In this document: positions 3,294 through 50,597 of the stretch, one piece after another
Numbering within the stretch: position 1 is the stretch's first letter
Layout of the letters: the number at the start of each line of letters is the position of its first letter
Assembly (NCBI GenBank): GCA_965197545.1
Contig: CBDANJ010000005.1
Span: 3,311-67,310 of the forward strand
Direction: 5' to 3'
From: Dehalococcoidia bacterium
GTDB taxonomy: Bacteria; Chloroflexota; Dehalococcoidia; Lucifugimonadales; UBA3495
DNA: 64,000 nt
The notes under the pieces: generated by a model
What the model saw: only the letters and a program-made list of their open reading frames with translations
Told to the model about the DNA's origin: nothing
The model's database searches: none
Position numbers and translations under genes: made by a program

Positions 3294-3566
3294 ATGATGG
3301 CTATTGTTAGAAAAGACATACACGATCCAGTCTCTGTGGGACGGACCGAATGGAGACCAGTGGGCATAAAACTCCGCATTGGTGGAACTGGGCAGGGCGA
3401 AGGGAGGCGCGCAATTCTCTCGTTATTAGAGGCCAAACAGATTGGCTACGCACTCTTGCTCGAAGCGGAAAAACTGGATGCAGAGCAACGGCGCGAAGAC
3501 CGAGAGGCCATGGAAAGAAAGATCGCGAAGAAAGCCGATCAATCGGAGTCTTTACATGAGCATTAA
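3294..3566 (+). CDS. hypothetical protein (90 aa)
   Basis: In-frame ATG of ORF 3270..3566, preceded by GGAGG 5 nt upstream. Confidence 0.35.
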   Translation: MMAIVRKDIHDPVSVGRTEWRPVGIKLRIGGTGQGEGRRAILSLLEAKQIGYALLLEAEKLDAEQRREDREAMERKIAKKADQSESLHEH

Positions 3567-18576: not shown

Positions 18577-18689
18577 TCTGGCCAGATGATCGCTCCAGGA
18601 CCTCTTGGTGAAACCGGTGCGCTTCCCTGATAGAGGCCACGCACTACCTTCAGCCTGTCGTGAATGCCCACATGGCTTGCCCTCAAATT

Positions 18690-18756
18690 TTCAAACATCC
18701 AAACTTTCAAAAGTTTATATACTCAAACACTCGGACTTTTGGTATAATCGCAGGCA
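18690..18756 (+). promoter_or_regulatory. parA promoter/operator copy
   Basis: Extended -10 TGGTATAAT at 18740-18748, only 8 nt before the GTG start. Palindrome AAACTT-TCAA-AAGTTT. Same sequence in reverse at 28938..29010. Confidence 0.5.
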
Positions 18757-18830
18757 GTGATCATCACCGTTGCCAGCTTCAGGGGTGGGGTAGGGAAGAC
18801 GACGACCGCCGTACACCTCGCCGCGCACGG
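18757..18830 (+). pseudogene. parA: parA 5' stub
   Basis: MIITVASFRGGVGKTTTAVHLAA matches the first 23 codons of ParA at 28937 with one substitution (R9 versus K9), then diverges. Confidence 0.7.
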
Positions 18831-20318: not shown

Positions 20319-20353
20319 CAGCCTGAGTGAGCGCTGTAGGAATCGCCGTCCTT
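20319..20353 (+). repeat. solo remnant of the IS200/IS605 right end
   Basis: CAGCCTGAGTGAGCGCTGTAGGAATCGCCGTCCTT matches 30823-30857 (2 mismatches). The second hairpin arm is missing. Confidence 0.6.
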
Positions 20354-20472
20354 ACTTCTCGAATCATCAAAAGAAACTTTGGCGCCTCTCGGTTCTTGGT
20401 GGTCGGTGGTCTCCCGACGTCGGAAGCGCTCTCTTTTTTTCACTTGCTTCTCATGCCATCTGTGATACATTA

Positions 20473-20691
20473 ATGGCCCTAAAAATGAGTAAGCCTAGAA
20501 AATGGACCAAGGTGCGAGAGTTTCCCCATCGGCTGGGCCTGACCATCGACGATGAGTTGCTCAACCACCTGGACGCCGTGGCCGGCAGTCTTGAGATCAG
20601 CCGGGCTGAAGTAATGCGGCGCGTGCTCCGGGCAGGGATCGACGACCTCCAAAAGCAAGAAAAGCCCCCCCTTAGCACTAGACAGGAGTAA
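20473..20691 (+). CDS. ribbon-helix-helix (CopG-like) protein, orphan
   Basis: RLGLTIDDELLNHLDAVAGSLEISRAEVMRRVLRAGI has the RHH pattern. The internal ATG was preferred over the track start. Confidence 0.55.
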   Translation: MALKMSKPRKWTKVREFPHRLGLTIDDELLNHLDAVAGSLEISRAEVMRRVLRAGIDDLQKQEKPPLSTRQE

Positions 20692-21094: not shown

Positions 21095-22534
21095 ATGAGT
21101 AAAACCAAAACACTATTCACTATGGCCCTGCTGGTCCTGTTGGGATCGATGGGCGCGGCGCAAGCGCAGAACTTCGCCGAGGTCAAGCTGTTTACGACCC
21201 CGGCGGACTTCGCACGGGAGGGGGGTAAAAACGAGGCGGCTGGTAGCATCCTCCTCAATTCTTCTGCCGAAGCCGCTCTCCGGGCAGACGGTGCAATGAT
21301 CGAGCTGCATTTTTCCGTTCCCCTTGCGGCAGATATAGACACCGCAACCCAAGCCGTCGAGGCTACCCAAGTGACGGTAACAGGCGACACTGGTGCCGAA
21401 GTGACGGGGATGGCGGAGAACGAAGATAACGACGGCAATGGGACCATCATGATTAATCCCACCACCGGCGCTGGCCAAAATCTGCTCATCCAAAACGTGA
21501 AGTTGGACGTCAGCGGCGCCGATGAAGCCGTTACCGTGACTCTTAAAGTAACTGCAGGAACGGACGACTTTATACGGATTGACGGTCCCAGCTCCGCCAT
21601 GGTGATCGGCGGCATCAAGGTTGGCGTGGAAGCCGAAGTCACGACGGTTACCGTTCGAACCCGAGGCACCGGTGCTGGCGGAGTGATGGCCTCTCTGACC
21701 CTGAAGGAATCCTTCAAGGGTGCCTTCATGACGGGCAACATGGTGACAGTCGATTCCTCCGGCATCCCGGAGGGAGCCACGCTGACAGCCATGGTGACTA
21801 GTAATCTTGTAGCAAATGAGGACGCAGATCCTCCGGTTGTGGTCGACGACACGACTCCCTACGCTACAGTGAGCGCAGTGAAAGATGGATCCGCCACGGT
21901 AACGCTGGGTGGCAACGACGGTACGAACGATAGGCCGACTCCTGCCAGCGTCACGCTAGAGCTGACGTTGACAGCCAATCCGGCCGACGAGAACGCAGAG
22001 ATATCCTTCCCGCTGGCCCGGTCCAGCGTCATGGCGAAAGCCACCTTCACAGATCCAACCGGTCTGGTTAATAACTTTGAGGATGCGTTCACGGATTACG
22101 TGACTGTTTTCAATATCCGTCCGGCCCAGTGCGAGATTCTCTTTCCGGTCGTGACTGTCAGACCCGCGACACCCATGATGGGTATGTGGGATACGGCAAT
22201 CTCCGTCACCAACCCGGCGTATGAGGACGAAATGGCGTCCGGCGGTCTGACGTTCACCTTCTACCCGATGGGGGCCGACCCTGTGATGTATGAAACTGGA
22301 ATGGGCTCTCCAGGAGACGGGCTGGAGGCTGATGGAACTCTCGCCCCAGGAGGCACCTATCAGGTCTTGATAAGTCAGATTCTTAGCTCCACCGGCTGGG
22401 GAGACAGTTTCCGAGGCCACGTCCATATCCTGGCTGATTACACGAACTGCACCGGCGTGGGCTGGGTAACCGATTGGATGGGGGTCAACCAAGCCTATTC
22501 TGCGGTCGTGATCAGTTCTGATACCGGCGAGTAG
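21095..22534 (+). CDS. secreted protein of unknown function (479 aa), paralog of 25040..27421
   Basis: GGAG-type RBS. Signal peptide ..LLGSMGAAQA/QN. Shares motif blocks with the 793-aa protein (..NVKLDVSG..VTVTLKV; LKESFKGAF..GIPEGATLT). Confidence 0.7.
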   Translation: MSKTKTLFTMALLVLLGSMGAAQAQNFAEVKLFTTPADFAREGGKNEAAGSILLNSSAEAALRADGAMIELHFSVPLAADIDTATQAVEATQVTVTGDTGAEVTGMAENEDNDGNGTIMINPTTGAGQNLLIQNVKLDVSGADEAVTVTLKVTAGTDDFIRIDGPSSAMVIGGIKVGVEAEVTTVTVRTRGTGAGGVMASLTLKESFKGAFMTGNMVTVDSSGIPEGATLTAMVTSNLVANEDADPPVVVDDTTPYATVSAVKDGSATVTLGGNDGTNDRPTPASVTLELTLTANPADENAEISFPLARSSVMAKATFTDPTGLVNNFEDAFTDYVTVFNIRPAQCEILFPVVTVRPATPMMGMWDTAISVTNPAYEDEMASGGLTFTFYPMGADPVMYETGMGSPGDGLEADGTLAPGGTYQVLISQILSSTGWGDSFRGHVHILADYTNCTGVGWVTDWMGVNQAYSAVVISSDTGE

Positions 22535-22568
22535 ATCTGGCCAACTGCCTAGTGATCCGATCGACCAA

Positions 22569-22607
22569 GCAAACGGCCCCCTTTTACCGGGGGCCGTTTG
22601 CTTTCTT
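22569..22607 (+). terminator. rho-independent terminator
   Basis: 13-bp stem GCAAACGGCCCCC / loop TTTTACC / GGGGGCCGTTTGC, followed by TTTCTT. Lies 35 nt after the stop. Confidence 0.75.
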
Positions 22608-22735
22608 AGACCCCTAGGTGGAGCTAGACCCGATTGAGGGTTTGGGTTGGACATAATCTCCTTCCCATATCCACCCTTTCGGCATACGGAAGAGCCGTTA
22701 CAGTCCTTCGATTCCGTTTCGTATCGCCTGGTTCT

Positions 22736-22751
22736 CCCCCCCCGGGGGGGG
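22736..22751. repeat. C8G8 homopolymer palindrome
   Basis: CCCCCCCCGGGGGGGG lies 60 nt upstream of the ATG at 22811. Confidence 0.8.
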
Positions 22752-22810
22752 CATAGGTGATACGGGTTTGTAACCATACCCAACGAGAAGCCCGCTCATT
22801 TAGAAAGGCG

Positions 22811-23941
22811 ATGTCACTTGTTTGCATCGAAGCTTCATCTTCCGGGCTCGCCGCCCTTTCCCTCATCGGGGTTATGCTTCTGTGCAATCCCCCCGCCTGG
22901 GCCAAGCCTGCTGAAACAATTCCACAAGACCTCGAGACCGTTCCGGATTTAAACCAGCTTCAGCAGGAGGTGCTGGAGTTTTGGTCGCTGGTGGTCCAGG
23001 GGAAAAAGTTTCAAGCCTTGCGCTATGTCGCGGAAGGACAAGACCACTTTCTGAACTGGAAGTGGCCTCTAGTTCGATCCTACCGGGTAACGAATCTGGA
23101 TTTGAAGAATGGATCGGACGAGGTTCTCGTCACGACAACGGCCATGGTCAGCCCTCCGGGGTTCGAGGCGGCGTTGAGTTGGCCGGTTCGGCAACGATGG
23201 GTCTTCCGGGACCAAGACTGGCGAATCCTGGTTGAAGGATCGAACCCGGCAGCCGTCTTTGGGGGGAAGAGCCGGATCCGGACAACGTCTGGGCGCGATC
23301 AGGCGGAGACCCTCAAGCAGTTCAAGCGACTCCAGATTGGGCCAAAGCGGATCCATTTCGGTGCGGTTCTCCAGGGAGAAACGATCTGGCAGGAGCTCAC
23401 CTACAAAAACGAAGGCGAGCTTGGGATCCGGGTACGAGTGATCCAGTCCCCACGCTGGGTGGCTCTTGATCGGAGCGATTTTATTGCCGGTCCAGAGGAC
23501 GAAGGGACGTGGCTTCTGGGTGTGTTTACGGAGAATCTAGAGGGCGAGGTTCAGGGGGAGCTCACTCTGGAATTGAGCCACGGCACGGTTCGTCAGGAAC
23601 AAATGGTTTCGGTTCTGGGATCGATCACACCGCCTCTGAGCCTCGCTCCAGGACGCTTGGTTCTCGTCCCGGGAATTTCCTATGAAATTCGGGTTCAAAA
23701 TCACACCCACCAAGAAGTCCGCATTGCTGAAATTGTGTCGCCGGTGGACTTTCTTGTAGCGAAGTGGTCTTCATCGGCGAGCGGCCACATCGTTCCAGAT
23801 GGCAGTGCGGCCCTGAAGGTCACATGGGACGCAGACCGTGCGCCTCAGGACTGGAGCGGGGGGATCCTGCGGCTGCTTTTGGATCAGCCCGTAGCCGGTC
23901 GGTCGGAGCTCACGGTTCCGATCCTGCGACAGTTTCCCTAA
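22811..23941 (+). CDS. secreted protein with NTF2-like N-domain and two Ig-like (DUF1573/ASH-like) domains
   Basis: Signal peptide ..CNPPAWA/KP. IHFGAVLQGETIWQELTYKNEGELGIRVRV resembles the DUF1573 F-x-F-G-x-V motif. This assignment is from memory. Confidence 0.55.
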   Translation: MSLVCIEASSSGLAALSLIGVMLLCNPPAWAKPAETIPQDLETVPDLNQLQQEVLEFWSLVVQGKKFQALRYVAEGQDHFLNWKWPLVRSYRVTNLDLKNGSDEVLVTTTAMVSPPGFEAALSWPVRQRWVFRDQDWRILVEGSNPAAVFGGKSRIRTTSGRDQAETLKQFKRLQIGPKRIHFGAVLQGETIWQELTYKNEGELGIRVRVIQSPRWVALDRSDFIAGPEDEGTWLLGVFTENLEGEVQGELTLELSHGTVRQEQMVSVLGSITPPLSLAPGRLVLVPGISYEIRVQNHTHQEVRIAEIVSPVDFLVAKWSSSASGHIVPDGSAALKVTWDADRAPQDWSGGILRLLLDQPVAGRSELTVPILRQFP

Positions 23942-23947
23942 AGAACA

Positions 23948-24975
23948 ATGGGCTTTTTGGTCGAACGATTCTCACCGAGCAACCCCTTGCGAGGTGACGG
24001 GTTTCCCCTGCTGGTTCTCTTCGGAGCCTTTGGGCTCGCCGGTTGTGTCTCCAAGCCGACCTTGGAGATGTTTCAGGAGGATGATCCGCCGTGCTACGAC
24101 CGCTCGGACCAACCCCAGACCGCGGTCGTGGATACCCACGTGCACTTCCGGCCGTTTGGAGGTGTCGCGATTCTGTTCGAGGAGACCGTTTCCTACCTGA
24201 AGGAGGCCAGCGTTCTGTTTGCCAACATCTATGGCATCGGTCAGGCGCTGCCACCGGAGTCCTCCTGCACGTACTACTTGGATTGCCCCGAAACGCCCGT
24301 GACGCCGACGTTCAAAAACGATTTCGTCAATGCCGCCAACTACAGCACAAACACCTCAATGGATGTCCATTTGACGCTTGCGATGACCTTCCCGGACTTG
24401 TCGCAACCCGAGTCGATTCTTCCTGGGATGCAGCTGTTGGAGAAGGAGTACCCGGGCGCCTTCAAGTGGATGGGCGAGGTCAATCTGGTGAAGCAGGCCT
24501 TGTTCGACAATGGGCGGGAGCCGGTCTCCGCCGCCCTGGAGGAGTGCTCGCCGTTTATGGAGGTGCTCCGCTTGTATCCCGAGGACACGATTGTCTGGAT
24601 GCCCTCCAGCACACCAGTACGATGGCGGCGCTGTTGGACCGCTACCCCAATCTGATGCTGGATATCTCCTGGCGAGGGATTGACGATCTCTACTTCTCGG
24701 GCCCGAGCAAGAAGAGGTTCTACGTTGCGTTCCTGAATGACTACTCGGAACGGGTACTGCCTGGGACGGACTTTTTGGCATCGAGGGACAAGGACATCGA
24801 CGTGTACCGAACGAAGCTCTGGATCACGAGCGGGATCCTTCGCGATCTGAACGACACCGCTTTCCGGAACATCGGGTGCAATTAAACAAAGGTACCCAAC
24901 ATCGCCTTGGGGGAGAACTATTTCCGTCTGTTGGAGCTGGACTACACCGCGCCGTCCATATGCGCGAGTCGATAG
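23948..24975 (+). pseudogene. amidohydrolase-family lipoprotein with a frameshift and an in-frame TAA
   Basis: Lipobox LAGC and VVDTHVHF. Frame change near 24600 (..YPEDTIVW / ..ALQHTSTMAALLDRYPNLMLDISW). TAA at 24883-24885, followed in-frame by ..IALGENYFRLLEL. Confidence 0.6.
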
Positions 24976-25039
24976 GAGGGCTTGGAGGTCCCCGCTCGTG
25001 GTGCGTCGACGATACGGGCCCTCGCGTCGGCCGATCCGC

Positions 25040-27421
25040 TTAGTCTTCCCGGGGAATCGATGCGATCCACTCTCCGGTCAGATCGCCGAACAGAGCGAAG
25101 CTCTCCACCGCTCCGTCCTGGGAGAACACCCGGAAGCCTCCCCCCCGTTGGCCGGACGTCTCTGGGATCAATTCAAAAAGGAGTTTGGCCAAGCGGGCGC
25201 CTGGATCGAGCTGAAAGTCGGCGGCCCCGACCACCTGGCCCGACGCATCGAACGCTTCCACGGTCCCGTCAACCGGCATTCTCCCCCGGTTTTTGATGGC
25301 CAATCCGGTAAAGAAGCCCTGATCCTGTACCACATGGGTGTAAAGGGCGTCCTTATCCGCCCCACGGAAAAGCGGAATCGTGGCCGAGTACCGGCCATCC
25401 AAGCTCTTGAACCGAACCGACCCGTTGATGCTGCGGGGGACCAGGTAAGGGCCGAGAAAAGCATTCAGGAGCTCGATCTCAAGGGAGCCCGTGAGCAACT
25501 CGGCCGTGGACAAGCCGAACAGAACTGAAAAGTCGACAACCCTCTGCTCGCGGGGTGCCAAAATAAAATCCGGCGAGACGAGGATGGCTTGGCCGAAATC
25601 GTCAAGGACCAAAATGCGAAGCTCCGCGTCCTTGAACCCGTCGCTGTTGATGAGGTTGAGCTCTGTCTCCAGACCGGCCCCGAGCCCGATGTGGGCGATT
25701 CCATAGGATGGCCGCAGAGAAGTCGTCTGGGCTGGTAGGTAATTGATCGTCTTTTCGTTTCCAAACGTCTCATGCGCCACCACTCCCTCTCCGGTGGCCT
25801 CGCCCCGGATGTACCCCCCCTGAAAGTCCGACAGCTCGACGGCAAAGAAGGTCCCAACACTCTCTGAGATCGTCCCCCGCGGACCCAGAGCTCGGTCGGT
25901 CGAGGACACCCTCTCCCCGTTGCCGTCATAGAGGGATGCCCGGATCTCGGTGTCGGCTTTTTCCGATGGATTGAACAAGTGCACGACCGTGAACGGCTCC
26001 TCTCCCTCCCGGGAGATGTTCGGAAGCAGGAACCGGGTGCGCGGAGGTTGACTCGCCGCCCCGCCGCCGCCCCGGGTTTGATCGTCCCCCAGCAGGAAGA
26101 TTGCTCCGATTTCGGCTCGCCGGGTGCGTGCTGCGATCGTTCCGGCCTCGACCTCCAGAATCCCGGACCCCAAAACCTCTTCAATCGCCACCGAGACCTG
26201 CTCCCCCTGACCGACCGGCAAGGAAGCCGGATTCACGATATCCGGCCCCAAGACCAGACGGCCCTCCGGGCCCAACGCCTCCAGGCGGACGTTTAGATCC
26301 AGGCTGCTTCGATTCGTGAACTGGAGCCGGAGCGGCCCGAGACGGAAACTGATCGGGAAATAGGTCTCAAATTCCGGTAAAGGGAGTTCCTCCTCGGGAG
26401 GAACAAACTTCGTCTGATACCGAGGAATGCAAGGATTTCCGCCACACTGCTCATCCTCTTCCGGAGCCAGCGTGGCCTGCAGGAATACGGCCGCGGGTTG
26501 TGCCACCACCGGCAGCCCTTCCGGCGGCTGCGAGTCGTCCGTGGATTCATCTTCCGGAGTGTCCATTTCGACCGTGTAGTCGAGTTGGAACGCCTCCACT
26601 CGCTGATTGCTGGCCACCTGCGGCGTAAACTCATACGTGATCGTCCGATCGTCGTCCCCGGTCGGCAGTTTGGTTTCAGACCCTTCCGCCACGGTGAGGG
26701 TTGCTCTCGATACGGTTGAGGGCACCGAATCGGGAAAGGTGACCGAAACCCCTTCAGGCAGACCGGTGATTCGGATCTGCACGCGGGTGGGGGCGTTTTG
26801 ATTGAATTGCCCGGTGTTCCCCGAGAAGGCTGAAGCAAAACCCTCCTTGAGGGTCAATGTCAGGTCCGTCGGCCGAAAAGACCTCTCCGGAAGGATGAAG
26901 ACCACATTCGACTCCAAATCAACTTCCAGGCCAGGTAGAACCTTTGAGATGACCTCGACAGAACGATAGCGCTCGAGGATGAAGAAGTCCGACCTAGGCA
27001 CAACGCTCAGGTTCGCCACAACTCGCTCAGCATCCGTCGCGGCCACATCGAGGCGAACCCCGCTCAGAGTCAGGACTTCGCCGTTATTGATCTCCTCGCG
27101 AATCCGGACCGTGAGGATTCCCGAGGCCAGGTCGGTTGGCTCGATGGACACTCTGGCACTGTCGGAAACGACCCCGGTATCCTCAATGGGGATGCCGTAA
27201 TCGATCACGATTTCACCCGGTCCCGCAGAGCCGGCGGACACGGCAAAAAGAAGGGTTCCAGAGAGCGCCGATCGATTCGTCTTCGCCACCTCTGTCGGAT
27301 TGCTGACGACGGCGACAAATCCCTGAGCCAGAAGCGGCGGCTGCGAGAGGAAAACGGACAGGGCGATGCACAAAGAAAGCAGACCCCAGAAAATGCCAGC
27401 TTGGTTTTTGTAGCGGAACAT
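25040..27421 (-). CDS. secreted multi-domain protein of unknown function (793 aa)
   Basis: Signal peptide. N-terminal blocks paralogous to 21095..22534. Four or more C-terminal beta-sandwich-like repeats of the type ..AHIGLGAGLETELNLIN... Confidence 0.7.
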   Translation of the reverse strand: MFRYKNQAGIFWGLLSLCIALSVFLSQPPLLAQGFVAVVSNPTEVAKTNRSALSGTLLFAVSAGSAGPGEIVIDYGIPIEDTGVVSDSARVSIEPTDLASGILTVRIREEINNGEVLTLSGVRLDVAATDAERVVANLSVVPRSDFFILERYRSVEVISKVLPGLEVDLESNVVFILPERSFRPTDLTLTLKEGFASAFSGNTGQFNQNAPTRVQIRITGLPEGVSVTFPDSVPSTVSRATLTVAEGSETKLPTGDDDRTITYEFTPQVASNQRVEAFQLDYTVEMDTPEDESTDDSQPPEGLPVVAQPAAVFLQATLAPEEDEQCGGNPCIPRYQTKFVPPEEELPLPEFETYFPISFRLGPLRLQFTNRSSLDLNVRLEALGPEGRLVLGPDIVNPASLPVGQGEQVSVAIEEVLGSGILEVEAGTIAARTRRAEIGAIFLLGDDQTRGGGGAASQPPRTRFLLPNISREGEEPFTVVHLFNPSEKADTEIRASLYDGNGERVSSTDRALGPRGTISESVGTFFAVELSDFQGGYIRGEATGEGVVAHETFGNEKTINYLPAQTTSLRPSYGIAHIGLGAGLETELNLINSDGFKDAELRILVLDDFGQAILVSPDFILAPREQRVVDFSVLFGLSTAELLTGSLEIELLNAFLGPYLVPRSINGSVRFKSLDGRYSATIPLFRGADKDALYTHVVQDQGFFTGLAIKNRGRMPVDGTVEAFDASGQVVGAADFQLDPGARLAKLLFELIPETSGQRGGGFRVFSQDGAVESFALFGDLTGEWIASIPRED

Positions 27422-28077
27422 CCGCCTATTATATCGCCTTACTCGAAGTCGTGGCAGAGTAGCTTGAGAGATGCCGTGAGGTGTCTTTGAGTGCCGTTCG
27501 TCGATCCTGAGGAATTCTCGGGCGGGTTATGGCCCCATGGTTACAGAGCGGCTGGAGCCTGATATCCCCGGAAGCGCTCACCCTGGAACTCCCCATGAAA
27601 TCCTGGAACGGCCAGGAGGTAATCTGCATCACCGAAATTCTGACCCCTAAGAGTCCAATGGGGTGCGGGTGCGGACCCCGGAGGATTGGAATGGAAGGAT
27701 CTACGGCTGGTCCTGGCTGAACCCATGGGCGGCCGCAGTGGGAATTGAGGAAGACGGCAGATCGGACCAACGATATCGGAATTTTACCGAAAGGGCGTTG
27801 ATTCCCCGGCCCACTGCGACCAGAAATAAACTTTACCCTGATTTCCCTGAAAATTGAAGTGTTTTCCGCAACAAATGTCTGCTCCACCGGGCGGGGCAGC
27901 TCAGGAGGGATTTCCTTTTGGGAGTGTGCTCTAGGACAGTGCGGCCAGGAGAGCCGTAGCGGCCGCTTGAGCGCAAAGGTCCGGCAGGTGGCCCAGAGAT
28001 AGAGATCGAGGTTCAACGAGGAGAGTTTGAGGGTTGAAGGCGCTCGACCGCGACTAAGCATCTGAGTATCGGGGTTG

Positions 28078-28347
28078 TCAACTACGCGCCTTAAGCCACT
28101 TGGCAAGTAAGTCCTCGACGAGTTCACTGAACTCCTGGCCTTTGCCCTCTTGCAGCAGCGCAATTTTGACGCCCTGGTGGGTGTGCCTGCGAATGTAGGC
28201 AGTGACCTGCTCGAAGTCTGGATCGTTGCGCTTGCCAGGTGGTCTTCCCCTCCGCCGCCGTTTGGTTGACACCACCAAAGGTGCAGGCTTGACCGCTGTG
28301 TCTTCCCTGTTCTTCGCAGCGTCAATGACCCTCTGGAACTTGCTCAC
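28078..28347 (-). CDS. ParG-like ribbon-helix-helix partition protein
   Basis: GTG overlaps the parA stop (GTGA), with an AAGGAG RBS. The C-terminal EQVTAYIRRHTHQGVKIALLQEGKGQEFSELVEDLL has the RHH pattern. Confidence 0.65.
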   Translation of the reverse strand: MSKFQRVIDAAKNREDTAVKPAPLVVSTKRRRRGRPPGKRNDPDFEQVTAYIRRHTHQGVKIALLQEGKGQEFSELVEDLLAKWLKARS

Positions 28348-28937
28348 GATAGTATCTCCTTCCCCAGCTTCTCGTAATCCGTCCAAGCCAGTTGTGCTCG
28401 GGGATCCCGGACAGCGAAGACCGGAACGCCTGCTAGAGCGGCCTTTTGAAAAGCAACGAGCCGACGGATACCGACTTCAAAAAGAGGTACTGCCCCCTGC
28501 TGCAAGAGGCTCCTGGCTTCCTCTCCGTCGCGGCTCGGCCGCGGCGGAATGATGGCGAGCAGAACCCGGTAACTGTTGGCTCCGATGTCCTGCAGGACCT
28601 TAACGGTGAGCATGAGCGCGTCCAAGGCCAGCACGTCCGGCGTCGTGGGAATGACGAGTAAATCGCAGCCGTCTGCAAGGGCCTTGAGATCCTCCTCTTC
28701 GGGACGCGCCTCGGTGTCGATAATGATGTGCTCGTACTCGCGCGCGTAGCGGGCGGCTTGGCGTTCATCGACGACCTTGAAAGGCAGCCCTCCTCGTTTA
28801 CCCCAGACAGTTGCGCTGCGGTTGGCATCCCCGTCAACCAGTAGTGCCGGAGCCCTCTTTTGCAGGTAGGCGGCGAGGTGTACGGCGGTCGTGGTCTTCC
28901 CTACCCCACCCTTGAAGCTGGCAACGGTGATGATCAC
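28344..28937 (-). CDS. parA: ParA-family partition ATPase
   Basis: Deviant Walker A KGGVGKTT, and DGDANRS. Confidence 0.9.
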   Translation of the reverse strand: MIITVASFKGGVGKTTTAVHLAAYLQKRAPALLVDGDANRSATVWGKRGGLPFKVVDERQAARYAREYEHIIIDTEARPEEEDLKALADGCDLLVIPTTPDVLALDALMLTVKVLQDIGANSYRVLLAIIPPRPSRDGEEARSLLQQGAVPLFEVGIRRLVAFQKAALAGVPVFAVRDPRAQLAWTDYEKLGKEILS

Positions 28938-29010
28938 TGCCTGCGATTATACCAAAAGTCCGAGTGTTTGAGTATATAAACTTTTGAAAGTTTGGATGTT
29001 TGAAAAAATT
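28938..29010 (-). promoter_or_regulatory. parA promoter/operator
   Basis: The rc contains TGGTATAAT (28946-28954), 8 nt from the GTG start, so there is no room for an RBS. Same palindrome as at 18690..18756. Confidence 0.5.
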
Positions 29011-29615: not shown

Positions 29616-30830
29616 CTGAAACGCCTGCAAACCTTCAAGTTCGAGACGCGGCCCAGTGGTCAGCAGAAACAACGCATGCGCCGCTTCGCGGGCTCACGCC
29701 GTTTCGTGTTCAATCGTGCCTTGGCTTTGCAGAAGGAATGCCACAAGCAAGGCGAGAAGCGGCTCGGCTACGCCGGTCTGTGTCAGTTGCTCACGGCGTG
29801 GCGCCACGCTCCGGAGACGGCATGGCTGGCCGATGCGCCCGCGCACCCTCTGCAACAAGCGCTCAAGGATCTCGAGCAGGCTTATGCCCACTTCTTTGCC
29901 AAGCGGTGTCGGCTTCCACGCTTCAAGAAGAAAGGCCGATCCGAAAGCTTCCGCTATCCCGACCCGAAACAGATCAAGCTCGATCAAGCCAACGGCCGCC
30001 TTTTTCTACCCAAGCTCGGTTGGTTGCGCTACCGAAACAGCCGCAAGGTCCTGGGGGAGGTGAAGCAGGTCACCGTGTGCCAACTCTGTGAGAAGTGGTT
30101 CGTATCGATCCAGACCGAGCGCTGCGTCGAGCCGCCCCTGCCACAGGGCGGGGCTGTCGGCATCGACCTGGGGATTACTCGCTTTGCTACGCTCTCCGAT
30201 GGTACGTTCTACGCACCGCTCAACAGTTTCAAGCGGCATGAGACTGCCTTGCGCAAAGCGCAGCAGGCGATGAGCCGCAAAACCACGTCCAGCAACAACT
30301 GGAAGAAGGCGAAAGGCCGTGTTCAGCGTCTCCATGCCCGGATCCGCAATGGCCGACGAGACGAGCTGCACAAGACCACGACCACGATCAGCAAAAACCA
30401 CGCGATAGTGTGTATCGAGGACTTGAAGGTGAGGAACCTGTCCAAGTCAGCGGCTGGATCAACCGAACAACCGGGCACTCATGTTCGGGCCAAGTCCGGT
30501 CTGAACAAATCCATCCTCGATCAAGGCTGGTTCGAGTTCCGCCGCCAACTGGCCTACAAGCTCCAGTGGTCCGGCGGATTGATGATTCCTGTACCGCCGC
30601 AGAACACGAGTCGTACCTGCCCGTGGTGCGGTCATGTGTCGAAGGACAACCGGCGGACTCAATCCCGGTTCGAGTGTGTGGCATGTGGTTTAAAGGAAAA
30701 CGCCGATTTAGTGGGTGCGATCAATATTCTAAGGGCAGGGCTTGCCCGGTTCGCCTGTGAAGTGAGCGGCGCAGTCATGCCGCCAGCAGCAGGAACCCTC
30801 CGAAGCGACTCGCTCAGGCATACAGCCTGA
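29616..30830 (+). CDS. tnpB: TnpB (IS605 OrfB, RuvC-like RNA-guided nuclease family)
   Basis: QTFKFETRPSGQQ..FAGSRRFVFNRAL; GIDLGITRFATLSDG; CIEDLKVRNL; CPWCGH..FECVACGLKENADLVGAINI. There is no in-frame ATG near the expected N-terminus, so CTG 29616 is a guess. Confidence 0.8.
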   Translation: MKRLQTFKFETRPSGQQKQRMRRFAGSRRFVFNRALALQKECHKQGEKRLGYAGLCQLLTAWRHAPETAWLADAPAHPLQQALKDLEQAYAHFFAKRCRLPRFKKKGRSESFRYPDPKQIKLDQANGRLFLPKLGWLRYRNSRKVLGEVKQVTVCQLCEKWFVSIQTERCVEPPLPQGGAVGIDLGITRFATLSDGTFYAPLNSFKRHETALRKAQQAMSRKTTSSNNWKKAKGRVQRLHARIRNGRRDELHKTTTTISKNHAIVCIEDLKVRNLSKSAAGSTEQPGTHVRAKSGLNKSILDQGWFEFRRQLAYKLQWSGGLMIPVPPQNTSRTCPWCGHVSKDNRRTQSRFECVACGLKENADLVGAINILRAGLARFACEVSGAVMPPAAGTLRSDSLRHTA

Positions 30831-30875
30831 GTGAGCGCCGTAGGAATCGTCGTCCTTTAGGACGGCGAGGATGTC
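30690..30875 (+). ncRNA. candidate TnpB omega/reRNA scaffold
   Basis: Position is inferred from family knowledge (tnpB 3' end plus right end). Visible hairpins GCGACTCGCTCAGGC-ATACA-GCCTGAGTGAGCGC (30806-30839) and 30848-30867. Boundaries not determined. Confidence 0.35.
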
Positions 30876-37839: not shown

Positions 37840-38043
37840 CACCCACAGGGGGTCACCTTCCGTGGCGAGGTTCCTTGCGTCGGAACCCCGGAAATCAAGG
37901 CGCGCCGATTTATCCTGGCCGTACGGTACCATAGCGAAATCGGAAATCCTGGCCTGACTCGGCGACCAAAATGGAAATCTCGGATTCTTTCGCCGGTAGA
38001 AGCGCTCTAGCGCTTTCATTTGTGCCGATTAGGAGGGGCGATC

Positions 38044-40770
38044 ATGCTCGATGCACTCAAGAATTTGACGGGCGGTAGCCGGACGAAAAAGCAGGCCGCG
38101 GATTTCGAGGCCTTGATCCTGGCGGCGAAGGAAGAACAAAGCGCCCTCAATGCCATGCTCGCACAGATTACCCTGCGCGGTTCGAAGGTGGCCCAGGTCG
38201 GCAAGACGCTCGAGCAGTTCGACGCGAAGACGGTCGCGACGAGCCAGAAGGTTACTGACGTCGACAAGCGCATCGCCGGCCTCGAGGAACGAACCCGGAC
38301 ATTTACGGAGATCGATGCGCGCATACAGGCGCTGCTGGCGATCGCGGAGCAAGCTCAGCAGAAGGCGGAGGGCTTGGTGGCTCCTGGCAGTGATCTACAG
38401 AAGCACCGACAGTCCGTCCAGCACCTCTCGTCGCAAATGCTCCAGACCCAGGCAGGCATTGATGCCCTCAAGCGAGAGCAGGCCACCCTGGAGGAGGCCC
38501 GGACCGCACTGCGCAAGACGCAGGGTGAGGTCAAGAGCACGATCGACGCTGCCGCGGTGGTCAAGGCCGAGCTCGATCAGGTCCGCGGTACCGCCGGCCA
38601 TCTATCGCAGGACTACGCGCGGCTGCGCGACGCGTCCAAAGAAGTACGCGAGGATTCCGTCGGGGCCGCGGAGTCGGTCAAGGAACTGGAGCGGAAACTC
38701 GGCCCGCTGATGCAGCTCCAGGAGCTGAGCAAGACGACCGAAGAGAAGCTTGCCGCCCTCAACGCCATGGCCGAGCATGTCTCACAGAAGGCCAAGGCCC
38801 TCGAGAGCCAGCGATCGACGGTGGAACGGGCCGTCGTCGAAGCCAAGCGACTGAACGAAATGGTCTGGAACATGGACGTCCAGATCAACCGGCTGAACGA
38901 AGGCGCGAAGGAGGCCCACCGTAGCGAGGAGACCATCGGCCGCATTGAGACACTCGTCCAGCAGACCAACGCCACGGTCGAAGGGGTGACAAAGGCCCGC
39001 GACGACATGGCGCGCGAGGCGGCGCGGTTTGAAAAGGATGGGCGGGCGCTCGTGGATGGCTTGCGCGCGTCCCTCGAGCGCGTTGCGCTCGAGAAGAAGG
39101 AATTCGAGGCGCTCGACTTGCGGCTGCGCGCACTGCAGGGCGCGGTCAAGGAAGCCGAAGCCAGCATGGAGGCGCTTGCCGTCAAGGAGCGGAATCTCTC
39201 CCAGCTCCACCAGAAGGCGGATGTCCTGCACCAGAGCTTCAAGGGACTCTCTGTGCAGGCAGACGAACTAGCGAAGAAGCAGGCCGGACTCGATATGCTG
39301 CAGGGCCGTCTCGCGCAGGTCGAGGAGTTGGCGAAACGGACGGCCCTGCAGCAGGAGACGCTGAAGCAGGGGCGACAGGAGCTCGAGACACTGCGCGGGG
39401 ACATTTATAAGTTCCACGAGTCCCACGCCCAAGTCGCCCGACTTGGCGACAAGCTGGCAGCCGACCGCGACGCGCTCGAAGCCTTCAGCGAGCGGATGAC
39501 GGCATTCATGCTCCGCACGCCGCAGATCGACGCCACGCTGAACGCGATCAATGGAAAGCTGGCGCTGGCCGATGAGGGGATCCAGCAGACGGTCCGGCTG
39601 GGTGAACTGGCCGGCGAGCTGGACACACAGGTGGATCGGCTTTCAGCTCGGACGCAGTTCGTCGACAAGCTGGAGGCCCGGATCGACGGCATGCACACGC
39701 TTGCTGCCGAAGTGGACGGTAAGCTGGCGGAGCAGCTCGCCCGCCGCTCCGAGCTCGACACCCTGAAGAGTCAGTGTGATTCGATTCTCGCGCGGACCCT
39801 CGACGCGGAGCAGAAGATTGAGTCGGTCGAGGCGCAGCAGCGAAAGCTTCTCCCCGTCACCAATCGCGTGTCCACCCTCGAGGCGCGCCTCGAGGCGGCT
39901 CACAGCCGCGTCAAGGAGATCCAGCAAGACGAGGCTGTCCTGCGCGAGCAGGAAACCCGACTGGCGGAATGTGTCGAAGCAAGCCGCGCGCTGGCCGACG
40001 AGACCAGCGCGCGAATGAAACAGACCCAGGCGCTGAACGACGAACTGACTCGTGCCGCCGTCACCAAAGACGAATTAGTTTCAGAACTCGCACGCATTCA
40101 GACACACCAGCGCGACGCGGCGGCGCGCGCTGAAACGACCGAGGATCAGATCAAACGCACCGAAACAATGTACAAGCAGATCGAACAGCGGCAGGGCCAG
40201 CTCGCATTCTCGGAAAGGAAGGTCGCGCTCGTCGAAGCGAAGATGGCCGAGCTGTCAGACAAAGCCGGTACCCTCGATCAGACGATCAAGGGCATTCTCG
40301 AGCGACAGGCGGTGGTGGTGGCCGTCAAGACCGAAGTGGACAGCGTCCACGAGATCAGCGCGCGCAGCCGGGCGGACCTGCAGTTCGTGACAGATCACCG
40401 GGACGAGGTGGCTGCCGTGCGGAGTCAGATCAATGATCTTCTGACCACAGCGCGGGAAACCGCGGAGAAGATCGCCGCCATCGAAGGGCGACAGGAGACG
40501 GTGGACGAGGTTCAGGCGAAAACGAATCTCATCTCGAACCTGCTCGAGGACGTGAGCGTGAATCTCGAAACACTCGTCGAGCAGAAGTCGATCATCGACA
40601 ATCTGACCGAGAAACTGGCCGGTGTTGACTTCACCATGCACGAGGCGCAGAACACGCTCCAGACGCTGAAGCACGAGCGCGAGCTGGCCGAACGCATGGA
40701 GAAGAGCATCAAGCAGCTTCGGACGAAAACCGTAAAGGCCGACCACCCGCGTAAATCGGCGACCGCCTAG
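38044..40770 (+). CDS. 909-aa cytoplasmic protein predicted to be almost entirely coiled coil
   Basis: AGGAGG RBS. No signal peptide, no Walker motif, no Cys/His clusters. Heptad-like A/E/L/Q/K/R-rich sequence end to end. Confidence 0.75.
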   Translation: MLDALKNLTGGSRTKKQAADFEALILAAKEEQSALNAMLAQITLRGSKVAQVGKTLEQFDAKTVATSQKVTDVDKRIAGLEERTRTFTEIDARIQALLAIAEQAQQKAEGLVAPGSDLQKHRQSVQHLSSQMLQTQAGIDALKREQATLEEARTALRKTQGEVKSTIDAAAVVKAELDQVRGTAGHLSQDYARLRDASKEVREDSVGAAESVKELERKLGPLMQLQELSKTTEEKLAALNAMAEHVSQKAKALESQRSTVERAVVEAKRLNEMVWNMDVQINRLNEGAKEAHRSEETIGRIETLVQQTNATVEGVTKARDDMAREAARFEKDGRALVDGLRASLERVALEKKEFEALDLRLRALQGAVKEAEASMEALAVKERNLSQLHQKADVLHQSFKGLSVQADELAKKQAGLDMLQGRLAQVEELAKRTALQQETLKQGRQELETLRGDIYKFHESHAQVARLGDKLAADRDALEAFSERMTAFMLRTPQIDATLNAINGKLALADEGIQQTVRLGELAGELDTQVDRLSARTQFVDKLEARIDGMHTLAAEVDGKLAEQLARRSELDTLKSQCDSILARTLDAEQKIESVEAQQRKLLPVTNRVSTLEARLEAAHSRVKEIQQDEAVLREQETRLAECVEASRALADETSARMKQTQALNDELTRAAVTKDELVSELARIQTHQRDAAARAETTEDQIKRTETMYKQIEQRQGQLAFSERKVALVEAKMAELSDKAGTLDQTIKGILERQAVVVAVKTEVDSVHEISARSRADLQFVTDHRDEVAAVRSQINDLLTTARETAEKIAAIEGRQETVDEVQAKTNLISNLLEDVSVNLETLVEQKSIIDNLTEKLAGVDFTMHEAQNTLQTLKHERELAERMEKSIKQLRTKTVKADHPRKSATA

Positions 40771-49903: not shown

Positions 49904-50597
49904 TCATGGTGCTTTGGATGTTGGTCCGCTGGCTTTGCCGCTCACCACCTGGACCGTCACCCGAGGTGCCCGGATAAGACTTTTACAGGAACAATAAAGC
50001 TGATTAGCCACTCGGCCGTGGGTGGAAATCGTGAGTTCTACCAGGGGTTCCATCTCCGTCTGAACGGTTAGGCTTCCGTCCTCTTGTCCCTCCAGATCTT
50101 CCGTAACCTCCACTACCGATTCCGCTGCAATCTGATTACCCTCCGGATCGTAAAAGTGGAGGACGGAACGAGGGGGCTCCCTATTCACCAACACCAGGTC
50201 GGAGGTGAATGGAAGCCCCATTGGCGAAATGCGCAAAGTCCAGAGCGAACTCCTCGACAGGCCCTTCGGGAAGATGGCTCAACTCCGCCAGGATCTCGCC
50301 CGTCAGCTGGTTGCGGTGGAGGGACAACGCCGGCAATCCGGCGAAGACGAGAAGGGCCGCCCGGTCTACGAGCAACATCAGCGGAGCAAACCGATGATCC
50401 GGCAGTAGAAAGCACCTGTGCGCGATCTGTCCCTGTGATGTGTGCCATGCCCCATTCTGCCTCCAGTAGGCAGGGGGGCCGTCCCGGTGGCTTTTCACAC
50501 AGTCTGGCTCCTTGGTGCAACCCGCCGTCACTAGGTTCCGGATCGACCGCCTCAAACCGCATAGAGTATCCTGTTCAGGCCCTTTTTTTGCGCTCAA
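49904..50597 (-). pseudogene. fragment of an LRR plus beta-sandwich secreted protein, frameshifted
   Basis: ..LSLHRNQLTGEILAELSHL..LDFAHFANGASI is in one frame and ..TSDLVLVNREPPRSVLHFYDPEGNQI.. in the next. Same domain type as the repeats in 25040..27421. Confidence 0.4.

Follow-up and report, generated by a model that had tools for sequence, protein, structure and literature searches.

The window, by which we mean the whole 64,000-nucleotide stretch of DNA analyzed here, corresponds to positions 3311 to 67310 of C5, a 69.7-kb contig in a metagenome-assembled genome (MAG) of eight contigs and 4.73 Mb with an estimated contamination of 8.96%. Our subject is a cassette within it that encodes three secreted proteins, which we call A, B and C, together with a decayed amidohydrolase gene. 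An earlier reading made from the letters alone (the sequence-only reading) had placed three intact open reading frames (ORFs) and a broken fourth here, at positions confirmed by the ORF listing, and had proposed an uncharacterized surface system. Comparison with other genomes places relatives of all three proteins together in Acidobacteriota, with the conserved domain of A repeatedly encoded beside genes of a type II secretion system (T2SS). Comparison loci are cited by number (L005, L007 and so on). The central features are as follows.

21095..22534, + strand: gene A, 479-aa secreted protein (ORF; AlphaFold2 model; homologue and divergence data)
22567..22603, + strand: intrinsic terminator hairpin 3' of A, a 15-bp stem followed by UUUCUU (fold -33 kcal/mol, z=-6.8)
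22811..23941, + strand: gene B, NTF2-like N-terminal domain and two PapD/DUF1573/ASH-type immunoglobulin (Ig) domains (ORF; start at ATG 22811 or GTG 22757)
23948..24885, + strand: Amidohydro_2 lipoprotein pseudogene in two overlapping frames (ORFs; comparison with L007)
25040..27421, - strand: gene C, 793-aa secreted protein (ORF; homology to the N-terminal domain of A; repeats), convergent to A and B

The three proteins of the cassette

By inspection, A, B and C all begin with Sec-type N-termini (A, ...GAAQAQ/N; B, ...PPAWA/KP; C, ...LLAQ/G), in agreement with the signal peptides previously noticed in A and C. The general feature of a T2SS substrate, a Sec or Tat signal with no membrane anchor, is therefore seen by the same inspection, and neither A nor C has a lipobox. 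No significant match to A, B, C or the amidohydrolase fragments was returned by scans of Pfam and NCBIfam, and PDB sequence profiles gave nothing significant for the three proteins (best E=0.43-0.45). The statement that none of them can be assigned to a characterized family thus stands, and none of these searches produced an enzyme. The sorting models for the type IX secretion C-terminal domain, PEP-CTERM and GlyGly-CTERM in Pfam and NCBIfam do not match A, B or C at E<=1. Sortase-anchored Gram-positive pilins and MSCRAMMs, which are among the top fold matches, have a C-terminal LPXTG signal and a monoderm wall, whereas A ends in ...VVISSDTGE and C in ...ASIPRED, and outer-membrane proteins are encoded on the element. 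The window ORFs scanned contain no usher and no pilin family of the chaperone-usher type, the PapD-like match of B reaching only E=0.23.

Protein A consists of three segments, A_N (residues ~26-235), A_M (~236-335) and A_C (~336-479). The AlphaFold2 monomer model, built on an alignment with 45 homologues, has four beta-sandwich domains and a mean predicted local distance difference test score (pLDDT) of 83.6, with low confidence in residues 1-24, the signal region. A_C, a beta-sandwich of ~140 aa, is the conserved and widely distributed part. The mature protein (46.9 kDa, pI 4.05) is rich in Thr, Ala, Gly and Val and poor in Lys, Arg, His and Cys. We found 173 close homologues, and a profile of the family recovered 761 clusters at 50% identity among 1.8 billion representatives; where any source names these clusters, the name is "hypothetical protein". 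The gene has the ribosome-binding site AAAGGAG and ends at the strong terminator listed above, whose stem is kept in the alignment of L005-L008 while its loop differs. As a transcription unit of its own with a strong ribosome-binding site and a strong terminator, A is probably produced in excess over B, judging from the sequence.

Protein C shares its N-terminal ~200 aa with A_N. BLASTP aligns ~127 residues (A117-231 with C104-228, E=7e-7), and alignment of the family profiles with hhalign gives a probability of 95.5% and E=1.6e-8 over A18-229 and C26-229, so that the ordered blocks earlier reported as common to A and C reflect true homology. The same cannot be said of the C-terminal module that the two proteins were also supposed to share. 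Profile alignment of these regions does not exceed a probability of 4%, and a hidden Markov model (HMM) of the C repeats scores only E=1-3 against the C-terminus of A. Nor was the module recovered from the pseudogene at 49904-50597, where it had likewise been reported: tblastn found no match, Pfam and our domain HMMs nothing, and the C-repeat HMM only E=4.9 in the piece at 49.9-50.3 kb. By these sequence comparisons the paralogy of A and C appears limited to the N-terminal part, and the resemblance of the C-terminal motifs may be common beta-sandwich grammar, not callable homology. Residues ~366-782 of C form three to four beta-sandwich repeats. Seven of 35 members of the C family match DUF5719 (PF18986; best E=1.1e-7), whereas window C itself has no match at E<=1; DUF5719 being a family of no known function, this relation gives no hint of a mechanism for C.

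Fold searches, with the model of A against PDB and BFVD and that of C against PDB, returned only generic strings of Ig or macroglobulin domains. For A, Foldseek listed integrin legs, the Ig domains of PrgB, Gram-positive pilins and herpesvirus gC, none with a TM-score above 0.34. With a pLDDT of 58.6 the model of C does not bear interpretation, and its macroglobulin-string matches have a TM-score of 0.1. Multi-Ig adhesins and pilins (PrgB 8beg, SpaD, BcpA, AspA, UafA) and macroglobulin strings (complement C3/C5, alpha-2-macroglobulin) are alike in being strings of beta-sandwiches, with Foldseek E-values down to ~1e-8 to 1e-9, but with TM-scores of only 0.1-0.34; the module proteins, from a probably diderm host, lack their LPXTG, isopeptide and thioester motifs, and the resemblance is one of fold class only. 

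Protein B is 394 aa long from GTG 22757 and 376 aa from ATG 22811. It had been described as carrying two PapD/ASH-like Ig domains, a description that its relatives satisfy better than the protein itself. DUF1573 is matched in 16 of 29 members of the B family and ASH in six, and distant homologues also exceed the cut-off for a HYDIN/VesB-like Ig domain, which is followed by a second Ig domain of the MSP/Cep192/ASH type; window B, however, scores 16.9-17.1 bits against DUF1573 (PF07610), below the gathering cut-off of 26.1. Two homologues pass that cut-off (L024 with 33.2 bits and L022 with 26.8), and the relation of window B to DUF1573 accordingly holds by transitivity only. The DUF1573, ASH and HYDIN/VesB families are without an assigned bacterial function. 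B differs from them in having an additional N-terminal NTF2-like domain, B_N, recognized through a single weak match to DUF4440; this domain, overlooked in the sequence-only reading, is the part of B that co-occurs with A_C.

Two small differences lie at the 5' end of B. A C8G8 tract in the region 22736-22766 belongs to a 30-nt insertion found in this window alone among the related loci; it is thus not a conserved feature, and we rejected phase variation at the tract on the same ground. A 1-nt difference in the region 22811-22850 shifts the start of B from the TTG of the other loci to ATG 22811 and strips the positive charges from the N-region of the signal peptide; this difference may be genuine or an artifact of long-read sequencing.

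A recurrent module of Acidobacteriota

That the cluster is carried on mobile DNA was correctly seen from the sequence: the window encodes three RepA_C proteins, ParA, a type IV coupling protein (T4CP), a relaxase, Tn3 and many insertion sequence (IS) elements. A search of the named plasmids in PLSDB with A and C (tblastn) gave no match. The arrangement A, B and convergent C, with or without Amidohydro_2 between B and C, is collinear on four other plasmid-type metagenomic contigs, again among ParA/RHH (ribbon-helix-helix), RepA_C and transfer genes. The contigs behind L005 and L007 each contain more than one gene of family A: there are three on the contig of 113 kb and two on that of 144 kb. 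Multiple A genes together with several RepA_C/ParA modules per contig suggest multi-replicon mosaics with more than one cassette.

The contig itself probably does not belong to the organism to which it was binned. C5 carries the only TonB Plug domain of the MAG and also encodes an outer-membrane beta-barrel protein, while the MAG contains neither Omp85/BamA nor a secretin, and the tetranucleotide profile of C5 lies more than 10 standard deviations from those of the chromosomal chunks. From these points it is most likely that C5 is a diderm plasmid mis-binned into a monoderm (Chloroflexota-like) MAG, a binning error worth flagging in its own right. A is absent from 300 other genomes of the phylum to which the MAG was assigned. 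The true host is probably an acidobacterium of the lineage of L009 and of the Acidobacteriota MAG G301, to which C5 is slightly closer in tetranucleotide composition, an only weakly informative measure for host assignment; G301 also carries a fragment 85% identical to the window type of C. A host of this lineage would bring the T2SS with it and already possesses a chromosomal trio.

Chromosomal trios in a different gene order are found at L009, L010 and L026, with identities to the window of 32, 55 and 54% for A, B and C. At L009 (a 3.19-Mb contig) and L010 (a 1.19-Mb contig) the order is C, A, B, and L010 has a second A; relative to the window, C is 54% identical there, A 32-33% and B 55%; G301 shows the same C, A, B arrangement. 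Among more distant Acidobacteriota, the whole trio is present at L022 and L024, A with C at L023, and A with B, at a contig end, at L027. The co-occurrence analysis suggested alongside the sequence-only reading therefore shows strong co-location, on plasmids and in distant chromosomes alike. Two outcomes would have spoken against an uncharacterized system, namely confident matches to known unrelated enzymes and homologues that never lie together; what we found instead were co-located homologues and no match to an enzyme or named family. The core of the description thus holds, namely an uncharacterized set of secreted proteins that function together, with one main subunit, a partner of Ig fold and a paralog of greater size. 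It needs amending in that the paralogy is N-terminal only, and surface location and a fibre or S-layer character are inferences.

Family A is matched in 22 of 301 Acidobacteriota genomes, mostly through A_C, with one to three A_C genes per genome. In some proteins the domain is all that follows a signal peptide, and in others it forms the C-terminal end of an otherwise unrelated ORF of 311-625 aa (measured from stop to stop). We surveyed ~20 kb around A_C matches in 27 chromosomal regions with local domain HMMs and tblastn. A GspD-type secretin lies within ~10 kb in 16 of the 27 regions, a gene for an extracytoplasmic function (ECF) sigma factor is present in 19, and a B_N gene is nearby in 16, in most of them directly adjoining the A_C gene and often only 4-15 nt from it. 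Pfam confirmed the secretion genes (Secretin, Secretin_N, the GspD N0 domain, T2SSM_b, a PilM/N-like GspL and, weakly, GspC). Each genome checked has one GspD-type secretin and a shorter PilQ-like one, and by our rough estimate the chance of adjacency to the sole GspD is ~0.4% per genome. The commonest form of the locus consists of gspL-M-C-D, the ECF sigma gene, a ~500-aa FG-GAP protein, a small protein with a signal peptide and A_C, and then the B_N protein. Among single-contig genomes, G491, G437, G389 and G460 have the A_C/B_N pair, and G481 has a gene with A_C only. Compared with this arrangement, the full A-B-C trio appears to be an elaborated form of the A_C/B_N pair. As most relatives are chromosomal and stand beside T2SS genes, the module is not intrinsically mobile and the plasmid copy is a derived case.

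Large Wzy_C+TPR proteins, of the O-antigen-ligase type, are encoded between the secretin and the module in three loci (L022, L023, L027); L023 also has PMT_2+TPR proteins, and genes for glycosyltransferases of family 2 (GT2) lie nearby in such loci. The ~500-aa FG-GAP proteins and pairs of ECF sigma and anti-sigma factors recur at many loci. It may be that these genes add glycosylation and regulation to the system.

Allele divergence in A and possible roles of the module

We compared the plasmid copies of the window, L005, L007 and L008. At the protein level A is 65-80% identical among them, B 97-99% and C 94-96%. Synonymous divergence (dS) is 0.16-0.58 for A, 0.02-0.035 for B and 0.03-0.09 for C, that of A being 10-25 times that of B; the ratios of nonsynonymous to synonymous divergence (dN/dS) are 0.46-0.89, 0.29-0.78 and 0.36-0.67, respectively. 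In sliding comparisons of DNA identity the divergence is mosaic within A and begins and stops at the borders of the gene. Variation is spread along the protein and peaks at residues 81-100 and 241-260, and A_C is the most conserved part. Because the divergence is both mosaic and confined to A, it points to old alleles recombined into a young backbone and not simply to fast evolution. That A is so much more variable than its partners would be in keeping with what is typically seen in exposed cell-surface proteins. A diversity-generating retroelement was considered as a source of the variability and rejected: there are no template or variable repeats, and the scan of window ORFs revealed no reverse transcriptase.

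Deeply diverged alleles in near-identical flanks with sharp recombination borders, as seen here for A, are also known from the S-layer cassette of Clostridioides difficile. The proteins, the envelope type and the secretion route of that cassette, and of other swapped surface-antigen loci, are unrelated to those of A.

We propose, with a probability of about one half, that A, B and C form a type-II-secreted complex at the cell surface in which A is the abundant, polymorphic subunit. The trio would be the plasmid-borne version of a conserved exported-protein module of Acidobacteriota. The T2SS of the host would carry the three proteins across the outer membrane, where they would assemble. A would display its variable N-terminal beta-sandwich domains while A_C docked on the NTF2-like domain of B, B serving as a conserved adaptor or anchor. 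C, which combines the N-terminal domain of A with three to four further beta-sandwich repeats, would be a second, conserved structural partner. New alleles of A would be swapped by recombination into the otherwise near-identical cassette, as one would expect if phages, predators or competitors exerted frequency-dependent selection. What is observed, and speaks for the proposal, are the homologies, the linkage of the genes, the secretion genes in the neighborhood, the allele pattern and the beta-sandwich fold of A with its matches to adhesin, pilin and integrin-leg Ig strings; T2SS export, surface location, contact between A_C and B_N, and the selective agent belong to the proposal itself.

Several observations weigh against this proposal. 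No secretin lies within 10 kb of the module in the plasmid loci or in the closest chromosomal loci (L009, L010, G301). The commonest relatives are ~200-aa proteins with A_C alone, which bear less resemblance to the subunits of a lattice or fibre and might be accessories of secretion. The fold matches of A are generic, as described above; a search for known anchoring motifs in the module proteins found none; and the neighboring glycosylation genes are of kinds common in Acidobacteriota and may be incidental. The dN/dS ratios, finally, come from only four sequences in low-coverage long-read assemblies.

A stricter interpretation, which we consider unlikely, is a true S-layer: A would form a two-dimensional paracrystalline lattice on the outer membrane, with C as second component and B as anchor, exported by the T2SS and perhaps O-glycosylated by Wzy_C/PMT_2-type enzymes. 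The size, acidity and composition of A are typical of S-layer proteins, the gene is monocistronic with a strong terminator, the allele pattern resembles known S-layer cassettes, and the T2SS and glycosylation genes in the loci would fit. The S-layer subunit of Aeromonas varies between strains, too. In A. hydrophila the S-layer gene vapA (469 aa) adjoins its own T2SS genes spsD-M (PMC4413209), a precedent both for this interpretation and for the surface complex proposed above. The VapA and AhsA proteins of A. hydrophila and A. salmonicida, with Sps and Aps as their dedicated T2SS, are acidic secreted surface proteins of ~470 aa encoded beside gspD-type genes. The T2SS beside the acidobacterial module differs in being the only GspD-type system of its genome, not an additional dedicated one; Aeromonas has no counterpart to B and C; and A is likened to VapA by gene arrangement, size and acidity, an A lattice being hypothetical. 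Beta-sandwich and Ig domains dominate known S-layer proteins, yet S-layers are not established in Acidobacteriota, where their status is given as "ambiguous" (bioRxiv 10.1101/2024.05.28.596244). Moreover, the ~200-aa size of most relatives is too small for a lattice subunit.

The same neighborhood could instead indicate a secreted scaffold of the biofilm matrix that binds exopolysaccharide and is released, not retained as a cell coat, in the manner of RbmA, RbmC and Bap1 of Vibrio cholerae, which are matrix proteins secreted by a T2SS. We regard this as unlikely. The T2SS genes, the adjoining polysaccharide-type genes (Wzy_C, GT2, PMT_2) and the all-beta, lectin-like domains agree with it, but no lectin or carbohydrate-binding family was detected with Pfam or NCBIfam, and the strong diversification of A alleles better suits a directly exposed target of recognition. 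A link between T2SS secretins and the export of slime, which has been reported (PMC12475490), would also agree with a matrix role.

Alternatively, A_C might be a phylum-specific C-terminal domain for targeting or anchoring T2SS cargo, with the B_N protein as its adaptor or receptor and with A and C as two of many passengers. In its favor, A_C is the most conserved part of A and is found by itself after a signal peptide or at the end of otherwise unrelated 311-625-aa ORFs, and the A_C-B_N pair is nearly translationally coupled and adjoins gspLMCD. C has no A_C, however, and yet is part of the module; one to three A_C genes per genome are far below what would be expected of a general sorting tag; and the T2SS signals described so far are, to our knowledge, conformational and not discrete domains. 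We judge this possibility improbable. A function in plasmid transfer is very improbable: the window-type cassette always lies among ParA, RepA_C, T4CP and VirB11-like genes, and the fold matches of A include the Ig domains of the enterococcal conjugation adhesin PrgB, which would allow a mating-pair adhesin or a surface or entry exclusion protein whose variability sets recipient specificity, but most family members are chromosomal and stand beside T2SS and ECF sigma genes, not transfer genes, and the similarity to PrgB, at a TM-score of 0.34, is of the generic Ig-string kind.

Acidobacteriota are among the most abundant soil bacteria, and their envelope and secreted proteins are almost uncharacterized. 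The analysis defines three unnamed protein families and a reproducible genomic signature consisting of a T2SS, an ECF sigma gene, an A_C protein and a B_N protein, and so offers a tangible candidate for the principal cargo of the T2SS, or the principal surface component, in this phylum. In the diverged copy carried by the plasmid, the subunit proposed to be exposed shows the behavior of a surface antigen that is exchanged. The nature of the coat of acidobacterial cells, the cargo of their T2SS and the structures seen by phages or predators thus become testable questions in cultured strains with the minimal pair. The proposed complex might even be the first surface coat (S-layer-like) identified in Acidobacteriota, or a phylum-specific means of attaching T2SS cargo, built on the two new domain families A_C and B_N, exported by the general T2SS under ECF sigma control, with plasmids delivering diverged "serotype" alleles; this larger claim is speculative and on balance doubtful.

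Amidohydrolase remnant and flanking elements

The decayed amidohydrolase lipoprotein gene that had been recognized between B and C retains its lipobox (LAGC). The remnant is 97.3% identical to the gene for a 407-aa Amidohydro_2 lipoprotein at L007, from which it differs by the absence of 90+37 nt (127 nt), including the IHAD segment, and by one further nucleotide. The L007 orthologue matches Amidohydro_2 (PF04909) with E=1.3e-13; the window fragments have no match to this family, and hence no intact domain. From the sequence the gene seems to be a recent pseudogene. It is accessory, being absent from L005 and L008. Near its 3' end, in the region 13769-14041 of L007, the L007 gene is 1 nt off the window and then runs into an implausible tail that overlaps gene C; the frame of the window looks like the genuine C-terminus, and thus L007 may carry a long-read indel error. 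A secreted amidohydrolase lipoprotein adjoins the module in both types of locus, in different families: Amidohydro_3 beside C in the chromosomes L009, L010 and L026, and Amidohydro_2 between B and C on the plasmids. This neighbor is either a coincidence or a recurring functional partner.

Further elements around the cassette are listed below.

18688..18824: left arm of an inverted repeat, 137 nt, 99% complementary, comprising the parA promoter and 5' end; parA is truncated here (repeat scan and ORF)
20446..20691, + strand: CopG/RHH_1 regulator gene directly 5' of A (Pfam RHH_1, E=3e-5, above the cut-off)
27428..27457, - strand: sigma-70-like promoter match 5' of C (consensus scan, 10 of 12 positions; a consensus match only)
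28078-28386: parG-like gene, 102 aa, following the intact parA
28870..29006: right arm of the same repeat, located where the intact parA (28344-28937, - strand) begins (repeat scan)

The small RHH gene is likewise found upstream of A in L005 and L007. The 137-nt inverted repeat brackets the A-B-C cassette on both sides, and in L005 and L007 inverted parA/RHH pairs flank it in the same way. In the window, part of an SDF-type transporter gene, on the opposite strand, lies directly next to the truncated left parA. A direct repeat of 35 nt (94%) is present at 20319-20353 and 30823-30857; the second copy lies at the right end of the IS200/IS605 tnpB gene, and the first is a solitary one in the interval that separates the truncated parA from the RHH gene preceding A. 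On the + strand at 27644-27745, a short distance 5' of C, 32 residues match the end of the HMM for the B Ig domain (E=0.002); they may be what is left of another B-like gene that belonged to an earlier arrangement of the locus. Further along the window, a 916-aa ORF at 38020-40770 (+ strand) gave weak matches of the coiled-coil type only and none to a family.

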